A DNA stretch of 64,000 nucleotides from positions 1-64,000 of IMG/VR virus record IMGVR_UViG_3300032293_001706. One strand, written 5' to 3'. Below, one piece after another: positions 18,455-41,976 of the stretch. The notes under the pieces are model-generated. The model saw only the letters and a list, made by a program, of their open reading frames with translations, was not told the DNA's origin and did no database searches. The translations under genes and the position numbers were made by a program. The first letter of the stretch is position 1, and every line of letters starts with the position of its first letter. This DNA is from a virus.

Positions 18455-20611
18455 GTGATTGAACAGGAAAAACTTGATTTGGTATTTGAATTATTAGATG
18501 ATTTTACATCTGATGGGAAACTATATTATGATGATGAATCGGAATCCATATGGATGATAAATCCAGATACAAAAGAATGGATATTTGAATTAACAAAAAC
18601 AGGTCGTTTATGGTATTATAATCCGATTTTTAGTGAAATTTTTAAATACGTTTTTATAGAATATCCTGATTTTAAACCGTATATAACAAAGTGGGTTGAA
18701 AGAATCCTTCAAAAAGAGGTTAAATACACCGATGTGGATTCTCATCAGTTGCGCAATCGAGTTGAAAGAATCCTTCAAAAAGAGGTTAAATACACCGATG
18801 ACGTTTCCGTAACGCACCACGGAAAAGTTGAAAGAATCCTTCGACGAGATAATAATTCGGATTCAGAAGAAAACATCAATGAAAGTGAAGAACCGTCATC
18901 AGTTGATGAGGATTTGGTATTTGAGTTATTAGATGATTTTACATCTGGCGGAAAGTTATATTATGAAGATGAAACGGAAACCATATGGATGATAAATCCA
19001 GATACAAAAGAATGGATATTTGAATTCGAAAAATCAGGAGATTTATGGTATCATTATAAAGTTTTTGAAAGTATTTTTAAATACGTTTTGATGAAACATA
19101 CTGAATTTTTTCCATATATAACAAAGTGGGTTGAAAGAATCCTTCAAAAGGATATTGAAGATATCGGTTTCGTTTCCCAAATGCGCCACCAGAAAGTTGA
19201 AAGAATCCTTCAATCAGGAACCGAATTAAATTCAGAAGAAAACATTAATGAAAGCGAAGAACCATCATCAGTTGATGAAGATTTGATATTCGAATTATTG
19301 GATGACTTTACATCTGATGGAAAGTTATATTATGATGATGAATATGACTCCATATGGATGATAAATCCAGATACAAAACAATGGATATTTGAATTCAAAA
19401 AATCAGGAAATTTATGGTATTATTATCCAGTTTTCGTTAAAATTTTTAAATACGTATCGATGGAATACCCTGATTTTAACCCGTATATAACAAAGTGGGT
19501 TGAAAGAATCCTTCAAAAGGAGGTTAAAGACACCCAAAGCCTGCGCATTCCTGTGATTGGCATTGTTGAAAGAATCCTTCAAAAGGAGGTTAAAGACACC
19601 TATCGATTTCGATTCCGAAATGAAGCGTATGTTGAAAGAATCCTTCAAAAGGAGGTTAAAGACACCAAAACGCGTAATGGAATACACCGAAGTACAGTTG
19701 AAAGAATCCTTCAAAAGGAGGTTAAAGACACCACAGAGCTGGAAGACCTTTCCATCAAATACGTTGAAAGAATCCTTCAATCAGGAACCGAATTAAATTC
19801 AGAAGAAAACATTAATGAAAGTGAGAAAATGAAAAAAACAAATTTAATGGGTACAATACTAAAAAGTTTTGAGATTAGAGATTCTTTACCTTCAGAAATT
19901 TGGTACAACCCTGATGGAAAATCCGTTAAAGATAGTAATGCTGGTGATTTAAAATTAAAACCTGAAATTAGACAACGTTTACTTGAAATTGCCGAGTTAT
20001 TTGTTGATTATATAAAATTGGACATGTTTGTCAATGATATTGTTATTACAGGTTCCTTACTTAATTATAATTGGTCCGACTATTCAGATTTTGATTTACA
20101 CGTTATAACATCATTAAGTAATTATCAAGAAAATGAAGAAATTTATAAAGAATTTTTTAAATTAAAGAAAAACTCATTTAATTTAAAACACGACATAACT
20201 GTGAAAGGGTATGATGTTGAAGTTTATGTTGAAGATAGTGATAATGAAAGATTTTCTTCAGGGGTTTATTCAATAATAAATGATAAATGGGTGAATGTTC
20301 CGAAAAAAGAAAAAGCAACGATAGATTTAAACAAAATTAAAGAAAAAACAAATCAATGGATGGAATTAATTGATAATTTAATTGATACCGCAAACGATGA
20401 AGATATCTATGTTGTAAAATCTTTATTTGACAAATATGGTGAAAAATTAAAAAATTTTAGGACTGCAGGACTAAAAAAAGGTGGAGAATATTCATATGAA
20501 AACTTGGTTTTCAAGGTTTTAAGAAGGAATGGTTATTTAGATAAATTCAGAAATGCTGCTGATAAAATCATAGATAAACAATTAACCTTAAAAGAAAGTG
20601 AAATATTTTAA
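18455..20611 (+). CDS. Fusion of three copies of a ~75-aa module, each carrying an interspaced repeat array, to a Pol-beta-like nucleotidyltransferase
   Basis: Three copies of FELLDDFTSxGKLYY...KWVERILQK; C-terminal part from about 19829 has ITGSLLNYNWSDYSDFDLH and YDVEVYVED. Confidence 0.8.
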   Translation: MIEQEKLDLVFELLDDFTSDGKLYYDDESESIWMINPDTKEWIFELTKTGRLWYYNPIFSEIFKYVFIEYPDFKPYITKWVERILQKEVKYTDVDSHQLRNRVERILQKEVKYTDDVSVTHHGKVERILRRDNNSDSEENINESEEPSSVDEDLVFELLDDFTSGGKLYYEDETETIWMINPDTKEWIFEFEKSGDLWYHYKVFESIFKYVLMKHTEFFPYITKWVERILQKDIEDIGFVSQMRHQKVERILQSGTELNSEENINESEEPSSVDEDLIFELLDDFTSDGKLYYDDEYDSIWMINPDTKQWIFEFKKSGNLWYYYPVFVKIFKYVSMEYPDFNPYITKWVERILQKEVKDTQSLRIPVIGIVERILQKEVKDTYRFRFRNEAYVERILQKEVKDTKTRNGIHRSTVERILQKEVKDTTELEDLSIKYVERILQSGTELNSEENINESEKMKKTNLMGTILKSFEIRDSLPSEIWYNPDGKSVKDSNAGDLKLKPEIRQRLLEIAELFVDYIKLDMFVNDIVITGSLLNYNWSDYSDFDLHVITSLSNYQENEEIYKEFFKLKKNSFNLKHDITVKGYDVEVYVEDSDNERFSSGVYSIINDKWVNVPKKEKATIDLNKIKEKTNQWMELIDNLIDTANDEDIYVVKSLFDKYGEKLKNFRTAGLKKGGEYSYENLVFKVLRRNGYLDKFRNAADKIIDKQLTLKESEIF
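18695..18842. CRISPR. CRISPR-like array A (2 full repeats, 2 spacers, partial repeat), in frame inside a CDS
   Basis: Repeat GTTGAAAGAATCCTTCAAAAAGAGGTTAAATACACC; 30-bp spacers at 18731-18760 and 18797-18826. Confidence 0.5.
19130..19213. CRISPR. CRISPR-like array B (degenerate repeat, 1 spacer, partial repeat)
   Basis: Repeat GTTGAAAGAATCCTTCAAAAGGATATTGAAGATATC; 30-bp spacer at 19166-19195. Confidence 0.4.
19499..19780. CRISPR. CRISPR-like array C (4 identical 36-bp repeats, 4 distinct 30-bp spacers, partial repeat)
   Basis: GTTGAAAGAATCCTTCAAAAGGAGGTTAAAGACACC at 19499, 19565, 19631 and 19697; 18-bp partial at 19763. Confidence 0.6.
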
Positions 20612-22502: not shown

Positions 22503-23373
22503 CATAGGTTCAAAAATAGAAAAACTAATAGCTGATGGATTCAGTTATAATACACTAAGAGGGTTATCTGAAGCTCAAGTTAATTTGTTGTATAATAGAT
22601 TGGTTGAGCAAACAGCACCACCAAATACAGAAATTATTAAGAAAAATACAACAACATATAAAGTAAAACCAAATGCCAAGACAATGATTGGTAATTTGGA
22701 GATTGACACGACAGGTGGGTCGACAAAAGTTACTCCAATGGAAGAAGAAACTTTGAATGTTGTTGATGACCCAGACGCAACTGAAGATGGCATGGGGATG
22801 TTTGAATCTGAAATTTCAGAAAAATTTGAATCTAAAAAACAACAAAAATATTTTTGGTGGAAATGTAATAGTTCAAAAAGTGAAAAGGCAAAGAAAAAAT
22901 GGTGTAAATGGGCTGAAGAGTTTTCAAAAGACACTAATTTCAAAAAACTTCCAGAAAAGAAAAGAGATGTTAAAAAGATTGAAGAGAGCTTGACAAAGTT
23001 AATTGAAAATCGTATACCTCAATCTATAACAAAAAAGAATCTTATGGATTTAATTGAATCATCAACAAGAACTAAGGAAGCACCGACAAAAACTCCAACC
23101 AAGACTCCGACAAAAAGTCCTGGAAAAGGAAATCCTTTTAAGATTCCAACACCAGCTCAGAAACCAGGTCCAAAGGCTGAGGTTAAAGAAGGAGGTTCAA
23201 GCGCACCTGCAAAAGCACCGACAAAAACTCCAACCAAGACTCCGACAAAAAGTCCTGGAAAAGGAAATCCTTTTAAGATTCCAACACCAGCTCAGAAACC
23301 AGGTCCAAAAATGAAGGCACCAAGTTGGTTAAGTTATAACGCATTTATTAACTCAGGTTACAAATTAATATAA
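22495..23373 (+). CDS. Hypothetical protein with duplicated Pro/Thr/Lys-rich block
   Basis: APTKTPTKTPTKSPGKGNPFKIPTPAQKPGPK occurs twice. Confidence 0.75.
   Translation: MSNIGSKIEKLIADGFSYNTLRGLSEAQVNLLYNRLVEQTAPPNTEIIKKNTTTYKVKPNAKTMIGNLEIDTTGGSTKVTPMEEETLNVVDDPDATEDGMGMFESEISEKFESKKQQKYFWWKCNSSKSEKAKKKWCKWAEEFSKDTNFKKLPEKKRDVKKIEESLTKLIENRIPQSITKKNLMDLIESSTRTKEAPTKTPTKTPTKSPGKGNPFKIPTPAQKPGPKAEVKEGGSSAPAKAPTKTPTKTPTKSPGKGNPFKIPTPAQKPGPKMKAPSWLSYNAFINSGYKLI
23078..23309 (+). repeat. 97-bp identical direct repeat, period 135 bp
   Basis: 23078-23174 equals 23213-23309. Confidence 0.85.
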
Positions 23374-24704: not shown

Positions 24705-24776
24705 AAATATTAATCTTAAACCTATTTATTATCTCGAATGATTTGTTTCATTCGAGATATTTATTTTAATAGATAT

Positions 24777-25472
24777 ATGGAAATTAAATTAACTGAATCA
24801 CAATTTGCCAATATTGTTAAAAGAATATTAAAAGAACAAACCGAGGAAGTTCTTGAACTTCCAGCAATTAAGTTTTTTTTTAATGATTGGAATGAGGTTA
24901 TAAAATATGTTGAAGAAGAAGGAAATCCATTGTTTTCGATGCAAGGAAATCTTGATTTTAGAAATGTTTGTCCTGAAACTCTTGGAAGATTATATTCGGT
25001 TGAAGATTTTTTGGGTTTATTTGCATGTGAAAACATAACATCTCTTGGAAATCTAACACATGTTGGGGGGTATTTGGATTTAAGGTTCACAAAAGTTACA
25101 TCTCTTGGAAATCTAACACATGTTGGGAATAACTTGGAATTATTTGGATGTAAAAACCTAACATCTCTTGGAAATTTAAGAGATGTTGGTAAAAATTTGG
25201 TTTTATATGGATGTAAAAACCTAAAATCTCTTGGAAACTTAACACATGTAAAGGGGGATTTGGATTTAAGGGGTACAAATATAACATCTCTTGGAAGTCT
25301 AACACATGTTGAAGGTTTTTTGGATTTATTTAACTGTGAAAAACTAACATATCTTGGAAGTCTAACACATGTTGGGGGGTTTTTGGATTTAAGATACACA
25401 CCAATTGCTGAAAAATATTCCAGAGAAGAAATAAGAAAAATGGTTAATGTTGAAGGTGATATTTATTTATAA
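24777..25472 (+). CDS. Leucine-rich repeat protein (22-23 aa units), paralog 1
   Basis: Repeated (I/L)TSLGNLTHVGGYLDLxxT/C; start MEIKLTESQF at 24777. Confidence 0.85.
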   Translation: MEIKLTESQFANIVKRILKEQTEEVLELPAIKFFFNDWNEVIKYVEEEGNPLFSMQGNLDFRNVCPETLGRLYSVEDFLGLFACENITSLGNLTHVGGYLDLRFTKVTSLGNLTHVGNNLELFGCKNLTSLGNLRDVGKNLVLYGCKNLKSLGNLTHVKGDLDLRGTNITSLGSLTHVEGFLDLFNCEKLTYLGSLTHVGGFLDLRYTPIAEKYSREEIRKMVNVEGDIYL

Positions 25473-26077
25473 TGAAAGAACTAATTAAAAGAATATTAAA
25501 AGAGGAAACCGAGGAAGTTCTTGAACTTCCATCAATCAAATATTTCTTTGATGATTGGAACAAGGTTATTAAATTTGTCGAAAGTGAAGGAAATCCATTG
25601 TTTTCGATGCAAGGAAATCTTGACTTACAAGATGTTTGTCCTGAAACTCTTGGAAGATTATATTCGGTTGAAGGTTATTTGGATTTAGAAGAGTGTGAAA
25701 ACCTAACATCTCTTGGAAGTCTAACACATGTTGAAGGTTTTTTGGATTTATTTAACTGTGAAAAACTAACATATCTTGGAAGTCTAACACATGTTGGGGG
25801 GTTTTTGGATTTAAGAGGTGCAAATATAACATCTCTTGGAAATTTAAAACATGTTGGGGGTCTTTTGTATTTAAATAAATGTGAAAACCTTACATCTCTT
25901 GGAAATCTACAATATGTTGGGGGGAGTTTGGATTTAAGAGGTACAAATGTATCATCTCTTGGAAGTCTACAACATGTTGGGGGATATTTGGATTTAAGAG
26001 GTACACCAATGGATAATGAATATTCCGAAGAAGAAATACGAAAAATGGTTAATGTTGAAGGAAATATTTATCTATAA
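25472..26077 (+). CDS. Leucine-rich repeat protein, paralog 2
   Basis: Same repeat and the same N- and C-caps as paralog 1. Confidence 0.85.
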   Translation: MKELIKRILKEETEEVLELPSIKYFFDDWNKVIKFVESEGNPLFSMQGNLDLQDVCPETLGRLYSVEGYLDLEECENLTSLGSLTHVEGFLDLFNCEKLTYLGSLTHVGGFLDLRGANITSLGNLKHVGGLLYLNKCENLTSLGNLQYVGGSLDLRGTNVSSLGSLQHVGGYLDLRGTPMDNEYSEEEIRKMVNVEGNIYL

Positions 26078-27975: not shown

Positions 27976-30972
27976 ATGGCAGATAATTATACAATATGGC
28001 AAAGACTTACAAGGGTTTTTGGTCCTGATTCAACATTAGGTCAACAACCTCCTGTATATAAGTTTGATAAAAAAGAACTTCTTAAAACAACTGACAAACA
28101 AGAATATGAAAAAGAGAAGTTACAAGCACAACAAAGTTACTATTTAGGTCAACAGTGGGCAAAGATTGAAAACAATTTATATACCCAAGCAATATATTAT
28201 GAACCAACAAGATTAGCGTCATATTATGATTACGAATCGATGGAGTTTTCGATTGCTGGGGATACAAAAATTGCAACACCTGATGGTTTTATAACAATAA
28301 AAGAGTTGGCGGATAAGGGTAGAGATTATGAATTTGTAACTTACGCTTATGACCACAACTTAAATAAAGTGGTTCCCGCAAAAGCAAGAAACGCCCACTA
28401 TACAAGAGATGAGATGACTTATAAAATAACATTTGACGATGGTAGTCATATTATTGCGACATATGGTCATAGATTTTTGAAACGTGATGGTGTGTTTTGT
28501 GAAGTTGAAAATTTGAAACCCGGAGATTCAATGATGCCATTTTATAGAAAATCATTCTATGCAAATGAAAAGTATAATTGGGTTTATACTTGTAATAAAA
28601 ATGAAGGTCATAATGGATGGATTAGTGAACATAATTTAATAGCTGAGTGGTTCTATGATAAGAAAGTATTAGAAGATGAAGAAGTTCATCATATAGACTT
28701 TAATGGTAAAAATAACTTACCTGAAAATTTACAAATAATGAAAATTTCAAAACATAGAGCATATCATGCTAGATTAAACAATGAAAAACTTTGGTCGAAT
28801 CCTGAATATAGACAAAAAATGTCTGAAACGGCAAGACGTAAAGGTAAGTTAAAATGGGACGGAAAAAGAAAAGGTCAAAATAATCCTTCATATATTAAAT
28901 TGTCATTTAACTTATTAGTTAATACCGCAAAAGAATATAGGACTTTAGAAAAAACGTCAAAAGTTTTAGGGGTATCAATCAAAAAAATACAAAATGAATT
29001 AAGATTTAATGGGTTCAAATGTTGGGATGACTTTTTAAAATTTTATAATCTTAAAAAATATCATAAAAATACTGAAAATTATGAATTATTAGATTTTAAA
29101 CTAATACCTTGGGACTTACTTATTGATACCGCAAAGAAGGGAAAAACAATGCAAAATGTTTGTGATACTTTAGGAATTACTTTTGGTAAATTAAGGTCGA
29201 CAATAAGACAAGGAGGGTATAGAAATTGGACAACATTTATGGATGCGTATGGTTTAGAATATGGTAAAGTTGGTAGAAAAAAACCAGTTGAATCTAATTT
29301 ATTAAATCATAAAATAGTATCTATTGAACCTTATGGCGTTGTACCTGTTTATGATTTAACAGTTCCTGGATACAAAAATTTTGCAACCGATACCATCTTT
29401 TCACACAATACTCCTGAAATATCAACTGCTTTAGATATTTACGCTGAAGAATCTACAACAACAAATGAAGATGGATACATATTACAAATATATTCAGAGT
29501 CTTCACGTATAAAAGGAGTTTTGGCTGATTTATTTAATAATAGGTTAGATATTAATACTAACCTACCAATGTGGACTAGAAACACCTGTAAATATGGTGA
29601 CAATTTTGTATACTTAAAACTTGACCCTGAAAAAGGAATTGTAGGTTGTCAACAACTACCAAATATTGAAATTGAGCGTTTGGAAAGGGGTATGAAGATA
29701 AAACCTTCACATAGTACATCTGAAGATGCAAAATCCTTAAAATTTGTATGGAAAGTTAAGGATATGGAGTTTAATACTTGGGAAATTGCCCACTTTAGAT
29801 TATTGGGTGATGACAGAAAACTTCCGTATGGAACAAGTATGTTGGAAAAAGCAAGAAGAACTTGGAAACAACTATTACTTTCTGAAGATGCAATGTTAAT
29901 TTATAGAACATCAAGAGCACCTGAAAGAAGAGTATTTAAAATATTTGTTGGAAATATGGATGATAAAGATGTTGAACCATATATCCAAAGAATTGCAAAT
30001 AAATTCAAACGTGACCAAGTTGTTGACCCAAAAAGTGGTAATGTTGATTTACGTATGAATCAAATGGCTGTTGACCAAGATTTCTTTATTCCTGTCCGTG
30101 ATGCCGCACAAACAAGTCCAATCGAAACATTACAGGGAGCACAAAATCTGTCTGAAATTGCCGATATCGAATACATTCAAAAGAAATTACTAACAGCATT
30201 ACGTGTTCCAAAAGCGTTTTTAGGTTTTGAAGAAGTTGTTGGTGATGGTAAAAACTTGGCATTACAAGACATTCGTTTTGCAAGAACAATCAATAGAATC
30301 CAAAAATCAATGATTCAAGAGTTAAATAAGATTGCAATTATTCACTTGTTCATATTAGGGTTTGAGGATGAATTAACAAACTTTACATTGGGTCTAACAA
30401 ATCCATCAACACAGGCAGATTTGTTAAAAATTGACACTTGGAAAGAAAAAATCACTTTATATAAAGACGCAGTATCCGACCCAGGTCTTGGAATACAACC
30501 AGTTTCCGCAACTTGGGCAAAGAAACATATTCTTGGATTTTCTGATGAAGAAATTAAGTTGGATATTCAACAACAAAGAATTGAAAGAGCGGTAGGCGCC
30601 GAACTTCAAAAAACCGCTGAGGTTATTATTCATACAGGCTTGTTTGATAATATTGATAAGTTATATGGTAAAAAACCTGGTGAAGCGGCTGGAGAAGCAC
30701 CTCCGACAGGTGGTGAACCATCAGATATGGGTGGTGGACCTCCCGATATTGGTGGTGGTGGACCTCCCGATATTGGTGGTCCTGAAGGAATGGAAATGCC
30801 AAGCGCTCCAACAGGAGGACCTGAATTGGCACCTGAATCAAAACTTGAAAAAGATATGAATTTAATTCTTGAAGATAATATGATAACAGGTGTTGATGAG
30901 ATTGATTTATCAAAAGGAAGGAAATCTTTATTGGAGATTGAAAATAAATTAGATGATTTATTAAATAAATAA
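27976..30972 (+). CDS. Portal protein (T4 gp20-like) with intein
   Basis: DYESME...PEISTALDIY, YRTSRAPERRVFKIFVGN, DFFIPVR, IETLQGAQNL, LRVPKAFL. Confidence 0.93.
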   Translation: MADNYTIWQRLTRVFGPDSTLGQQPPVYKFDKKELLKTTDKQEYEKEKLQAQQSYYLGQQWAKIENNLYTQAIYYEPTRLASYYDYESMEFSIAGDTKIATPDGFITIKELADKGRDYEFVTYAYDHNLNKVVPAKARNAHYTRDEMTYKITFDDGSHIIATYGHRFLKRDGVFCEVENLKPGDSMMPFYRKSFYANEKYNWVYTCNKNEGHNGWISEHNLIAEWFYDKKVLEDEEVHHIDFNGKNNLPENLQIMKISKHRAYHARLNNEKLWSNPEYRQKMSETARRKGKLKWDGKRKGQNNPSYIKLSFNLLVNTAKEYRTLEKTSKVLGVSIKKIQNELRFNGFKCWDDFLKFYNLKKYHKNTENYELLDFKLIPWDLLIDTAKKGKTMQNVCDTLGITFGKLRSTIRQGGYRNWTTFMDAYGLEYGKVGRKKPVESNLLNHKIVSIEPYGVVPVYDLTVPGYKNFATDTIFSHNTPEISTALDIYAEESTTTNEDGYILQIYSESSRIKGVLADLFNNRLDINTNLPMWTRNTCKYGDNFVYLKLDPEKGIVGCQQLPNIEIERLERGMKIKPSHSTSEDAKSLKFVWKVKDMEFNTWEIAHFRLLGDDRKLPYGTSMLEKARRTWKQLLLSEDAMLIYRTSRAPERRVFKIFVGNMDDKDVEPYIQRIANKFKRDQVVDPKSGNVDLRMNQMAVDQDFFIPVRDAAQTSPIETLQGAQNLSEIADIEYIQKKLLTALRVPKAFLGFEEVVGDGKNLALQDIRFARTINRIQKSMIQELNKIAIIHLFILGFEDELTNFTLGLTNPSTQADLLKIDTWKEKITLYKDAVSDPGLGIQPVSATWAKKHILGFSDEEIKLDIQQQRIERAVGAELQKTAEVIIHTGLFDNIDKLYGKKPGEAAGEAPPTGGEPSDMGGGPPDIGGGGPPDIGGPEGMEMPSAPTGGPELAPESKLEKDMNLILEDNMITGVDEIDLSKGRKSLLEIENKLDDLLNK
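28249..29409 (+). mobile_element. 387-aa intein with HNH endonuclease in the portal gene
   Basis: Starts SIAGDTKI, block B ATYGH, HNH core EVHHIDFNGKNNLPENL, ends VYDLTV...FSHN with +1 Thr. Confidence 0.88.
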
Positions 30973-31960: not shown

Positions 31961-32155
31961 TTATTTTGATTCTAAATCTTGTTTATATTGTTTATATTTT
32001 GCTTTCCTAATCTTTTCTCTTTTTAATGTTGATTTTTTAACGTGCTCTTTCCGTCTTTTTAATTCCTCAATTTGTCCACTGGTAATCACTTTAGATTTAT
32101 ATTTTTTAAGTGCCTTATCCAAATTTTCACTTTTTTCTACTTTTATTATAATCAT
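31961..32155 (-). CDS. rpsU: Ribosomal protein bS21
   Basis: MIIIKVEKSENLDKALKKYKSKV...EELKRRKEHVKKS...KAKY; 64 aa from ATG 32155. Confidence 0.88.
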   Translation of the reverse strand: MIIIKVEKSENLDKALKKYKSKVITSGQIEELKRRKEHVKKSTLKREKIRKAKYKQYKQDLESK

Positions 32156-36983: not shown

Positions 36984-37013
36984 AAAAAGGGACGATTTAT
37001 TCGTCCCTTTTTT
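36984..37013. terminator. Bidirectional intrinsic terminator after the capsid gene
   Basis: AAAAAGGGACGA-TTTAT-TCGTCCCTTTTTT. Confidence 0.88.
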
Positions 37014-38628
37014 ATTTTAAAACCATTTCATATTTTAAATTCCCTGTATCCCATATTTTATCATAACCCAATTCAATCATGATTTGATTTTCGGTTTTAT
37101 TTGAATCGTGTCCCATTTTAACTAAAACATCTTTTCTAAAATTAAATCGATAATATCTATGTATATAGTTTTTTGTGTAATAATAATTTGGTTTTGTTAT
37201 ACCAATAAAATTAAAACCCACTTTACCATAAAAACAATACTCATCAGACGGGGACCAATTTCTGTCGGCATATGTAATAATTCTATTGGGTTTATGTTCT
37301 TTAATAAAATGGTTCAATAATTTGGTGAACCCTCCAATAACATTTAAACTACAATATCTGTATATTTCATAATCCTTTAGTTTTTCATTTTTATTACCTA
37401 ATGGTCTTCTCAAATTACCAAAAGTTAACAATGATACTATTTTATCATTGTACTTTAACGCATAAAAAATAGAAGACTTGTCATTCCCTTGTAGATGATT
37501 ATCGTCTAAAAATTTTTTCTTTTCAATTTTACTTATTTGTTCAATTGTACATTTCCTTGCGTATATTTTTTCATTTTTTATATTAGTTAAGTTTTTGAGT
37601 CGCTCTTTTATTATTTCTTTTTTGGATTCCCATTCATCGGAAAATATGTGAATAAGTCTAATTTTGTTATCTAAACATTTTATTGTTTTATCTATATGAT
37701 ATTTCTTAGTTTTTCCTTGTTTTTCAGAATGCCAATAAAGACCATTAAATTCTATTCCTATATTAAAATCAGGTAAAAAAATGTCTAATTCAGTACCATT
37801 TAAAATTTTTTTAGTATTTGTTTCATATTTAATACCCAACGTATCTAAAAAAGAACATATTTCAATTTCAGATTTACTTCTATACGTTATATTGTTATTC
37901 GAATTAATTAAATTTTGATTAAAGATATTGTTTAATTTTGTGGAAATTATATTATCTCCGTACAAAAGTTTGTATTTATCAACTGTTATATCGTGTAATT
38001 TTAAATAAGTATTCGATAAAATTTTTAATTTTTCATCACATATATTACAAATTATATAGTTTTCTTTATCATTAAATAATTCATTACGTTCCTCAAATTG
38101 TTTAAAAGTGTTAAAGTAATTAATATATTGTGGGTACTGTTCAATAAAATCGGATACTGATACATGTTCCTTTTCAATATGTTTTGTAAACGACCCACTC
38201 TTATTTTTTAAATCAGTTGTTTCCCAATTACATATCGGACAAATTAATTGAGGTAATTCAATAACTTCTATTTTATTAAAGAATTCATTATGAAAATGAA
38301 CTCCATGTTCTTTAAAAAACATTCTACGTTTAAAAGAGGACGGGATGTCAACGTCAGGATAACATTCTTTAATGTGGGTAGTTATTGAACCACTTTTATT
38401 TTCATAATCGTTGAACTTTTTAGAACACTTTTTACATTCTAAAATGTGTGGTGTTATTATAATATTTTTATTGTTCGTGTATTTTACTTTACCACCGACT
38501 TTTTTGATAGGTATATTATTATTTTTTAGTATGGTTTTTAATTTTAATTTACCTATTTTATATTCTTTACATATCTTATCAAGAGATGAATCTGCTTCTA
38601 AATATTTTTTAATTATTTCATGTTCCAT
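37012..38628 (-). mobile_element. Putative free-standing homing endonuclease (Zn fingers plus Vsr/EDxHD-like nuclease core)
   Basis: CKKC...HIKECY, CPIC...HIEKEH, CNIC; ELDIFLPDFNIGIEFNGLYWHS; IYDTG-like tail KIWDTGNLKY. Confidence 0.6.
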
Positions 38629-40053: not shown

Positions 40054-41976
40054 TTAACAATATGGTGGTGAACACCTTTTTTTACCATCCAATCCTTTAA
40101 TTTTACCTTTACATACTTGTACGGCGAAACCATTTGCATATGCAGAGGGGTAAACGTCAAATTTTGCTTTTGCTGCCGACTTTCCTCTTGAACATAATTT
40201 TGTTCCTGTTTTCTTTTTTCCTTCACTTATTTGAGGTAAAACTTTATCCAATACAGTTTCAGGGTCTTTATATGTATTTAATTTCTTTTTCATTTCACCA
40301 ATATCTTTGATTGCCGCCAAATAAGGAACCATAGAATCTTTAACTTTATCACTGAAAGGTAAAACTTTACTAAGTTCGTCCAATACAGATTCTAAAGATA
40401 ATGATGTTAAAATTGGCATCCCAAAAACATTAAAAATTTTAAACCCTGGAATTGCCATTTCACCAGCCGATTGTAACATATCAATAAAATCAACCTTTAA
40501 TTCATCTTCAACTTTATCAAATTCTTCCAATAAATTTTCAATTTCTTCACCACTTTCAAATTTCTTCTTTAAATCATAATATTTTTCCATATCATCATTT
40601 AATTCAGAATAATTTAAAATTATTGATGCCGCACCGACAGGAACATTTAAACCAGGTATTGAACCTAAAGTTGCTCTTACTTTATCACCAACTATGTTTG
40701 AGAGAATACCTCTCCAATCAAAATCTTCATTTATATTTCTCATATCATCTTTATTTAATTTTATTTCTTTTTCTATTTGAATAGATTTATTGTCGTACCA
40801 ATTACTAAAAAATTCAGAAACGTTGTTGATTTCATCACTTCTGTTAACAGCCATTTGGATTGCGAATGGGGAACTAAATGTATCTCTTCGGGCTTTCTTA
40901 ATAGGTCTTTTAATAATACTTTCTACCCATTTTTTTATATAAGGAACATACTTAGGACTTTCCATTAAAAAATATTTAAAAAGAGTATCAAAAAAAGTAA
41001 TATTATAATCTAATACACCTGATTTTTGTAATATAAAAATCCATTCATTTTTTTCAGGGATTATCATCCATATTATTTCCGATGACTTATCATAATATAT
41101 TTTTCCTTCAGATGTATAAAATTTAATAAATTCAAGTATTAAATCTCCACTAATTTTTGGTAATTTATCTTCATTTATATTTCCCATATCATCTTTATTT
41201 AATTTTATTTCTTTACCTAATTTAAGGATATTATTAACATTCACAATTTCGGGAAGAGTTGGCCAAACAATATCTTTAACCTCCTTTTGAAGGGTTTTTT
41301 CAACCCACTTTTTTACATACGGAACAAAATCAGGGTATTCCATCGAAACGTATCTGAAAATACTCTTAAAAACTCTTAAAGAACACCATAGATTACCTGA
41401 ATCATATAACGCAAATACCCATTGATTTTTTTCAGGGTTTATCATATATATTGTGTCGTTGCTATAGTTAGAATATAGTTTTGTATCAGATGTAAAATCA
41501 TCTAATAATTCGAATATAATTTCTTCATCGACTAATCGTGATTCTTCACTTTCATTAATATTTTCTTCTGAATTTAATTCGGTTCCTGATTGAAGGATTC
41601 TTTCAACCGATAAATTGTTATCTTTAAGATTTTCATAAGTGTATTTAATCCCTTTTTGAAGGGTTCTTTCAACCGCATGGATGCCGCGTATTCCGAGAGG
41701 TTCGGCGTAGTTAACCTCCTTTTGAAGGATTCTTTCAACCCACTTTTTGATATACGGGTTAAAATCAGGGTATTCCATCGATACGTATTTAAAAATTTTA
41801 ACGAAAACTGAATAATAATACAATAAACGACCTGTTTTTGTTAATTCAAATATCCATTTTTTTGTTTTTGGGTTTATCATCCATATGGATTCCGTTTCAT
41901 CATCATAATATAACTTTCCATCAGATGTAAAATCATCTAATAATTCAAATATTAAATCTTCATTGATTTTTTCCAT
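40054..41976 (-). CDS. Fusion of three copies of the array-bearing module to unrelated C-terminal domains
   Basis: FELLDDFTSDGKLYY...KWVERILQK module and two diverged copies; C-terminus LCSRGKSAAKAKFDVYPSAYANG...C. Confidence 0.78.
   Translation of the reverse strand: MEKINEDLIFELLDDFTSDGKLYYDDETESIWMINPKTKKWIFELTKTGRLLYYYSVFVKIFKYVSMEYPDFNPYIKKWVERILQKEVNYAEPLGIRGIHAVERTLQKGIKYTYENLKDNNLSVERILQSGTELNSEENINESEESRLVDEEIIFELLDDFTSDTKLYSNYSNDTIYMINPEKNQWVFALYDSGNLWCSLRVFKSIFRYVSMEYPDFVPYVKKWVEKTLQKEVKDIVWPTLPEIVNVNNILKLGKEIKLNKDDMGNINEDKLPKISGDLILEFIKFYTSEGKIYYDKSSEIIWMIIPEKNEWIFILQKSGVLDYNITFFDTLFKYFLMESPKYVPYIKKWVESIIKRPIKKARRDTFSSPFAIQMAVNRSDEINNVSEFFSNWYDNKSIQIEKEIKLNKDDMRNINEDFDWRGILSNIVGDKVRATLGSIPGLNVPVGAASIILNYSELNDDMEKYYDLKKKFESGEEIENLLEEFDKVEDELKVDFIDMLQSAGEMAIPGFKIFNVFGMPILTSLSLESVLDELSKVLPFSDKVKDSMVPYLAAIKDIGEMKKKLNTYKDPETVLDKVLPQISEGKKKTGTKLCSRGKSAAKAKFDVYPSAYANGFAVQVCKGKIKGLDGKKRCSPPYC
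41239..41304. repeat. Degenerate single repeat-spacer unit of the same family
   Basis: 36-bp repeat at 41269-41304, 30-bp segment at 41239-41268, then a decayed partial repeat. Confidence 0.45.
41590..41739. CRISPR. CRISPR-like array D (2 full repeats, 2 spacers, partial repeat), inverted relative to arrays A-C
   Basis: Repeats AGTGTATTTAATCCCTTTTTGAAGGGTTCTTTCAAC (41638-41673) and GGCGTAGTTAACCTCCTTTTGAAGGATTCTTTCAAC (41704-41739); 30-bp spacers. Confidence 0.5.

Follow-up and report, generated by a model that had tools for sequence, protein, structure and literature searches.

CRISPR-type arrays of host chromosomal fragments readable as protein in a freshwater jumbo phage

How do arrays with CRISPR anatomy come to lie, in frame, inside the protein-coding genes of a virus, and what do the inserts between their repeats represent? 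The question is raised by IMG/VR virus record IMGVR_UViG_3300032293_001706 (190,552 bp, 63% complete), the first 64 kb of which (positions 1 to 64,000) constitute the window referred to below. At positions 18,455 to 20,611 of this window, an open reading frame (ORF) of 718 residues carries three arrays of 36-nucleotide (nt) repeats and 30-nt spacers, each fused to a copy of a small domain. As set out below, the spacers that could be assigned are fragments of host chromosomal genes, gained at the domain end of the array and readable as part of the protein.

Anatomy of the arrays

The initial annotation of the window described four identical 36-bp repeats separated by four different 30-bp spacers (array C), with the same geometry in arrays A, B, and D, giving nine spacers of 30 nt. 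Both descriptions were confirmed, and array C additionally ends in an 18-nt remnant. The GC content of the spacers is likewise as described there (37-60% in eight of nine), D2 being the exception at 20%. The repeat unit that had been quoted for every array is found as an exact 12-residue unit in array C, whereas A, B, and D carry variant repeats. The whole record contains eight 36/30 arrays with 25 spacers, every one of 30 nt, and their mean GC content is 46% compared with 30% for the genome. Every array starts at the last helix of one domain type of about 75 residues, in frame with the domain, and is made up of constant repeats and unique spacers of fixed length. The arrays and their components are the following (window coordinates, except where the genome is named).

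18455..20611, plus strand: 718-residue ORF; three domain copies, each with an in-frame array behind it (A, B, C), and, from about 19829 on, a nucleotidyltransferase-like region
18476..18694, plus: domain copy 1, whose coding DNA is the growth-end (leader) side of array A
18695..18842, plus: array A; two 36-nt repeats, two spacers, last repeat truncated
18731-18760, plus: spacer A1, no match
18797-18826, plus: spacer A2, 26/30 to host pseB, antisense
18911..19129, plus: domain copy 2
19130..19213, plus: array B; one decayed repeat, one spacer, last repeat truncated
19166-19195, plus: spacer B1, 29/30 to a host gene, antisense
19277..19498, plus: domain copy 3; helix, small sheet, two helices
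19499..19780, plus: array C; identical 36-nt repeats at 19499, 19565, 19631, and 19697, four differing 30-nt spacers, 18-nt truncated repeat at 19763-19780
19535..19564, plus: spacer C1 (newest position), host panB, exact, sense, in frame; modelled within the folded domain
19601..19630, plus: spacer C2, source not found
19667..19696, plus: spacer C3, host paaC region, exact, sense, shifted frame
19733..19762, plus: spacer C4, host relA/spoT, exact, sense, in frame
40054..41976, minus strand: 640-residue ORF; three domain copies, the first with array D, the second with a decayed single unit, the third without a recognizable array
41739 to 41590, minus: array D, two spacers
41674-41703, minus: spacer D1, host gene, exact, antisense
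41608-41637, minus: spacer D2, no match, 20% GC
41304-41223, minus: decayed repeat-spacer-remnant unit, overlooked in the initial annotation and the tenth unit when counted with the window spacers
Genome 155235, 155670, and 156683: arrays E, F, and G, beyond the window in the same record
Genome 189993-190552 (contig end): array H, beyond the window; a different 36-nt repeat, eight spacers

Arrays E, F, and G are distributed over two ORFs with four domain copies (genome 155007-157528), which lie just upstream of genes for primase-like, PD-(D/E)XK exonuclease, metallophosphoesterase, and SbcC-like proteins. The nucleotidyltransferase-like region behind array C (19829-20611, plus strand) has its own possible start codon. 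The linkers between modules (18870-18900, 19240-19270, 19800-19830, and 41540-41570) contain an I-N-E motif resembling T4 head-protease sites, and the domain-array polyproteins may, judging by this motif, be capsid cargo that is cleaved to single modules.

Host origin of the spacers

A scan of GTDB genomes with a merged pattern of spacers H5 and H6 gave a single hit, an exact copy of H6 in accA of a river Bacteroidota metagenome-assembled genome (MAG). In the comparison of spacers with Bacteroidota sequences that the initial annotation had proposed, this MAG and its closest relatives match 15 of the 25 spacers (10 exactly, 13 with at most one mismatch). The matches are chromosomal genes of one freshwater Bacteroidota MAG group, including panB, paaC, relA/spoT, pseB, nuoE, and accA, and the four mismatches of A2 to pseB all fall on host third-codon positions. 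With orientation assigned by the longest ORF, about ten spacers are in sense and five in antisense, and all frames are represented; 51% sense would be expected (p = 0.30), and these data are compatible with random capture of double-stranded DNA followed by a stop filter. Since both strands and all frames contribute, the source is DNA. The 30-nt inserts are double-stranded fragments of the host chromosome, an origin established for this one phage.

No spacer matches the phage record itself or has a second copy in the phage, and the spacers of one complete relative have no match outside the arrays in their own genome among the part of the candidates that was scored. Protospacers above chance were found neither in INPHARED phages nor in PLSDB plasmids, and none was found for C2 and G3 in IMG/VR. 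Limited searches gave no match to other viruses, all 15 assigned spacers being host chromosomal. A metagenome scan with two spacers of a phage of the second repeat class (class 2) returned only other strains of the same phage, and 401 Bacteroidota genomes gave no hit, a result regarded as uninformative. Spacers A2 and B1 are alike at 20 of 30 positions; their origin as duplicates of an old spacer was considered and rejected, as they match different host genes.

The assigned spacers do not all point to the same host genome. H4 and H6 are exact in MAG G050 and lie 6 and 3 mismatches from MAG G055, respectively, while H2 and C1 are exact in G055 and 6 and 3 mismatches from G050; the two MAGs are 86-92% identical at the loci compared. 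These data suggest that the phage has passed through more than one host species, and an unsampled mosaic host would also be possible. Array H, seven of whose eight spacers match host MAGs, is cut by the contig end, and the assembly probably broke at this variable array. Spacer H5 derives from a host tandem repeat region with several near-identical copies (L125:1500-1700).

Reading frame, polarity, and repeat ends

The domain matches 321 clusters (50% identity), and in 76 of the 151 domain proteins inspected a period of 22 residues dominates the sequence behind it. With two narrower alignments, 109 IMG/VR loci were retrieved; parsed together with the present record, they yielded 64 distinct arrays and 202 spacers, counts that are approximate because some sub-arrays overlap. 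A more distant domain type in relatives (L098:1645-1850 and L112:1451-1600) also carries in-frame 36/30 arrays, which indicates that the superfamily is wider than the alignments used. The array-associated domain is found in neither Pfam nor PHROGs, and its structure matches in BFVD are uncharacterized phage proteins only.

The absence of stops from the coding frame of the nine window spacers, pointed out in the initial annotation, extends to all 25 spacers of the record, in that none of their 250 codons is a stop, compared with a mean of 13.9 stops in shuffles; only 1 of 20,000 shuffles was free of stops, and the remaining five frames of the same spacers hold 6-17. Across the family, 191 of 202 spacers are exactly 30 nt, and the coding frame contains 2 stops in 1,797 codons, compared with 4-8% in the other frames. 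A stop would be expected in about a quarter to a third of inserts if these were random, and contigs from other runs carry different, stop-free 30-nt inserts at this same locus. Only in-frame, stop-free inserts persist. The constraint holds even where just a short tail follows the array (1 truncated among 28 arrays), and it is therefore unrelated to a downstream domain.

Orthologous arrays in several strains of one relative have the far spacer in common and keep the order of their units, while inner units have been lost and the units adjacent to the domain differ. The same polar pattern is seen in a second group of orthologous arrays, and repeats decay with growing distance from the domain. Units are thus gained next to the domain, with duplication of the repeat, and this polarity, a comparison across related phages that had been called for at the outset, makes the coding DNA of the domain the leader side of the array. 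The initial annotation had considered a repeat-duplicating insertion process that adds random 10-residue peptides. The insertion process stands, whereas the peptides are not random, being translated from captured host DNA, mostly out of the host frame.

According to AlphaFold, the predicted local distance difference test (pLDDT) score is 96-98 (per block, to residue 100) from the domain through repeat 1 and spacer 1 to the repeat-2 helix, and below 50 in later units; a strand (residues 85-89) and a helix (94-105) overlap spacer 1. In this model, repeat 1, the newest insert, and the repeat-2 helix are part of the folded domain, and the older units form a disordered tail. Stops may be purged because the newest spacer lies inside the modelled fold: each insert would enter at position 1, and a stop or frameshift at this point would cost the protein its last helix.

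The repeats are highly variable in the middle and are of two kinds, GTTG...CACC and GGTG...CAAC, whose registers against the codons are offset by one base. With units anchored on the protein only, the rare codon ACC (13% genome-wide) closes 30 of the 33 units that start with GTT; in those starting with GTG, the valine codon is preceded by a fixed G, and the third base of the last codon is free. Such register-specific end bases show that the repeat boundaries are set at the DNA level. The layout of Bacteroidota Cas13b repeats that had been recognized initially is only partly present, in that the repeats resemble those of type II-C and VI-B but their ends are GGTG...CAAC or GTTG...CACC and not the paired GTTG...CAAC. 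Folding energies of the repeats are no better than those of shuffles, the Bacteroidota -7 promoter motif is not in excess in antisense behind the arrays, and the exact repeat was not found in IMG/VR.

Candidate capture machinery

The initial annotation reported no cas gene in the window. This was borne out for cas1 in 50 phage records (seven of them at least 90% complete) and for cas2 in five; cas9 was not searched. No cas13b was found in the record or in four near-complete relatives with a model that does find G104, and the genes flanking the arrays are phage genes. Reverse transcriptase is likewise missing from five phage records, four of them at least 90% complete. On the host side, 11 of 61 relatives have cas1, mostly of type II-C. 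G054, a close MAG of the host group, has a II-C cas9-cas1-cas2 locus with 47-nt repeats and 30-nt spacers, and two more distant relatives have 36-nt II-C repeats. A search for Cas13b gave none in the eight closest host MAGs and one split gene in the 61 relatives, in MAGs that are incomplete.

Capture in trans has a precedent in Flavobacterium columnare, in which a cas1-less 36/30 array is filled by II-C Cas1-Cas2 (Hoikkala 2021, PMC8092290). In Campylobacter, spacers derived only from the host are captured during phage infection (Hooton and Connerton 2015, PMC4283603). By analogy with these systems, the host II-C Cas1-Cas2 is the probable enzyme that inserts host DNA in trans into the phage arrays. 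A phage integrase is also conceivable, given the mismatch in repeat length, the absence of a protospacer adjacent motif (PAM), and the patchy distribution of cas1.

The host 47-nt II-C repeat (L201:31-231) is 11 nt longer than the phage 36-nt repeat (19499-19534), a difference of about one helical turn. Both end bases and two internal hexamers are common to the two repeats, in the same order, which may be due to chance. In a distant host relative (L243:4453-8900), a split cas13b, csx28, and an array of 8 repeats make up a type VI-B locus.

Proposed explanation and alternatives

In the proposed explanation, a paralogous phage protein family would end in a strand-loop-helix element encoded by a CRISPR-type repeat-spacer-repeat. 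The integrase would be the host type II-C Cas1-Cas2 acting in trans, probably without PAM selection by Cas9, and it would be fed by host DNA degraded in lytic infection, possibly with the help of the phage PD-(D/E)XK exonuclease. An insert would enter at position 1, the repeat would be duplicated, and older units would be pushed into the tail. Selection would act on the protein, inserts that break the last helix being lost, and the array would log the hosts through which the lineage has passed. This explanation as a whole, i.e., capture of host DNA into translated arrays, selection at the protein level, and diversification, is considered likely. As to its purpose, each capture could exchange a surface segment of 10 residues in a protein that interacts with the host or is carried in the virion, so that the arrays would serve as a diversifying device, a suggestion put forward tentatively and judged almost evenly balanced. 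Diversification is favored because it explains the obligatory fusion, the many paralogs, and why rare-codon repeat ends have been retained although bad inserts are costly. The broader claim that a jumbo-phage clade has domesticated a host CRISPR adaptation enzyme as a protein diversifier, with the peptide altering what the protein binds or evades, is more speculative still.

Several observations weigh against this explanation. Stops aside, the peptides look unselected: proline is tolerated at modelled helix positions, and peptide composition is near that of the reverse-complement control, which gives no sign that peptide sequence matters. Ten of the 25 spacers remained without a source after the searches, and no motif was seen within 20 nt on either side of 14 protospacers, a small sample, unlike II-C acquisition in F. 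columnare. Among the eight closest host MAGs, which are incomplete, only one has cas1, and its repeat is 47 nt and not 36. The domain fold has no clear PDB match (best Z scores 4.8 and 4.1). The fixed repeat ends are partly survivor bias, since only competent repeats expand.

The unselected look of the peptides would suit a tolerated by-product, in which the domain end mimics a host repeat, insertion there is an error of host Cas1-Cas2, and in-frame events are survived by the phage without benefit. Some domain copies have no array or only decayed units, and long arrays of relatives decay to ordinary low-complexity repeats, as a by-product might. On the other hand, random insertion would bring in a stop in about a quarter to a third of cases, yet the rare-codon ends are kept, in two registers and in many phages; a single synonymous change to the preferred codon would probably abolish the site, and this record has eight arrays. 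A by-product is judged unlikely. An integrase encoded by the phage and unrelated to Cas1 by sequence, to which we give rather little credence, would account for the patchy host cas1 (11 of 61 relatives), the repeat length that differs from that of the nearest host array, and the missing PAM; the record lacks about a third of the phage genome, and many genes are uncharacterized. However, the spacer length, the 36-nt repeats with G at both 5' ends, the polarity toward the leader end, and the Bacteroidota-like repeat ends match the products of Cas1-Cas2, and no candidate gene is tied to arrays at the loci inspected. The arrays might instead be decoys, with repeat copies on phage DNA soaking up host Cas1-Cas2 and prespacers so that fewer anti-phage spacers enter the host array. 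There are eight or more sites per genome, about 2 kb past array G is a gene for a PD-(D/E)XK exonuclease, and a related hypothesis exists for Campylobacter phages with Cas4-like proteins (PMC4283603). A sink has no need of a position inside a folded domain, yet in-frame fusion behind the domain holds for every array found; phage-derived spacers were not found, and the decoy is judged improbable.

The initial annotation also raised the use of host effectors, with arrays transcribed in antisense and processed to guides for host Cas13b or Cas9 that silence or cut host genes. An activated Cas13b would arrest the very cell that the phage needs. The 36/30 geometry is that of type VI-B (10.1101/092577), the antisense strand has a U-rich loop and agrees with a true VI-B repeat in 20-22 of the 36 bases, and arrays with host-targeting spacers are known from huge phages (PMC7162821). 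That likeness is modest, however, its orientation flips between the two repeat classes, and terminal pairing is broken by a fixed mismatch. The idea of Cas13b guides finds no support in the host MAGs, which are incomplete and among which, as noted above, the gene was found in none of the closest eight and as a single split copy in 61 relatives, nor in the spacers, which come from both strands of ordinary, scattered housekeeping genes; about a third of those matched would face no mRNA. A Cas9 version lacks a PAM, and either version leaves the strict reading frame unexplained; guides are judged improbable. An ordinary hypervariable protein repeat, which the initial annotation had named as the alternative to its reading, or targeted hypermutation of the kind produced by diversity-generating retroelements (DGRs) would fit a unit that is a whole number of codons and the 20/30 likeness of A2 and B1. 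Both are refuted by the protospacer matches and retain a vanishingly small probability, given ten exact 30-nt matches to host genes, the assignment of A2 and B1 to two of them, the third-codon mismatches of A2, and the lack of reverse transcriptase in five records. Capture of host DNA into translated arrays is retained as the best explanation.

Comparison with known systems

In their polar growth and their foreign-derived 30-nt spacers, these are real CRISPR-type arrays. They are CRISPR arrays by anatomy, and on the features tested they belong neither to type VI-B or II-C nor to the DGRs or Racrs. The closest counterpart is the F. columnare VI-B array (PMC8092290), which likewise has a 36-nt repeat, a 30-nt spacer, no cas1 or cas2 of its own, a Bacteroidota host, and polar growth, and whose leader-distal end motif is also that of the class-2 phage repeats. 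Unlike it, the phage arrays lie within an ORF, have coding DNA as their leader, and show neither cas13b nor a PAM, and their assigned spacers are all host-derived and frame-selected. The paired GUUG/CAAC ends and poly-U loop of type VI-B are missing, the U-rich loop being present in antisense only and one end always being mismatched, and the cas1 and cas2 genes of type II-C were not found at the phage locus within the records given above. The compact arrays of huge phages (Al-Shayeb 2020, PMC7162821) and phage mini-arrays are similarly short, lack adaptation and effector genes, and are presumed to use host Cas proteins, and some have host-chromosome matches. They are read as non-coding guides, in contrast to arrays that are translated and fused to one domain family, with the newest spacer in the modelled fold. 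Capture in Campylobacter (PMC4283603) shares II-C machinery (presumably also at work here), host-only spacers, and a phage PD-(D/E)XK nuclease; there, spacers enter the host's own array, and here they enter phage genes. Racrs (PMC10651486) are phage-encoded mimics of host CRISPR repeats, solitary and non-coding in contrast to the multi-unit, growing, in-frame arrays of the present phage.

DGRs, often phage-borne, rewrite a short C-terminal segment of a conserved scaffold by means of a reverse transcriptase, a template repeat, and adenine mutagenesis. The phage arrays likewise rewrite a short C-terminal segment on a conserved scaffold, but without any of these three components; whole foreign 30-mers are inserted and older ones kept. 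Full-text searches of the literature gave no paper on translated phage arrays, and one pipeline explicitly discarded translated CRISPRs as artifacts (PMC10392669).

CRISPR arrays have been regarded as non-coding stores of invader DNA. Here, a virus stores DNA of its host, and the stored DNA is kept readable as protein under strict selection of frame. The chemistry of capture is probably already known, its use being new. The arrays provide exact and ordered host assignments for uncultured jumbo phages, and, as spacers of one array best match different host species, they suggest a readable history of host switching. If the integrase is the host Cas1-Cas2, coding sequence can act as a leader, and a 36-nt repeat can possibly be used by an integrase of 47-nt repeats, a question that PMC8092290 leaves open. 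Should the peptide matter, the arrays would represent a means of diversifying proteins that differs from DGRs, and nature would offer in them a template for recording peptides in frame or building libraries.

Genomic setting of the phage

The gene for the phage ribosomal protein bS21 lies among terminase, portal, head protease, and capsid genes, outside the arrays:

31985..32146, minus strand: bS21

It sits between the genes for the portal, which is T4-like, and the head protease. Freshwater bS21 jumbo phages have a reverse-strand bS21 in the head module and predicted Bacteroidetes hosts, according to the passages found in Chen 2022 (PMC9723584). The same position and strand of bS21 place the present phage among these freshwater Bacteroidota jumbo phages, which it also resembles in having relatives of about 300 kb (complete relatives are 292-318 kb) and Bacteroidetes hosts. 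It differs in its arrays, the passages found in that paper mentioning none in phage genomes.

The portal gene (27976-30972, plus strand) is split by an intein with an HNH-like stretch, and a large homing/HNH endonuclease gene (37012-38628, minus strand) follows directly after the capsid gene. A TnpB/IS605-like ORF was recognized by eye at genome 171099-172310. An exact 97-nt direct repeat within an ORF at 23078-23309 (plus strand) is a recent duplication or an assembly artifact. Lastly, leucine-rich-like repeat genes with periods of 60-63 nt and variable residues, at 24738-26077 (plus strand) and genome 68967-69449, constitute a second diversified family.

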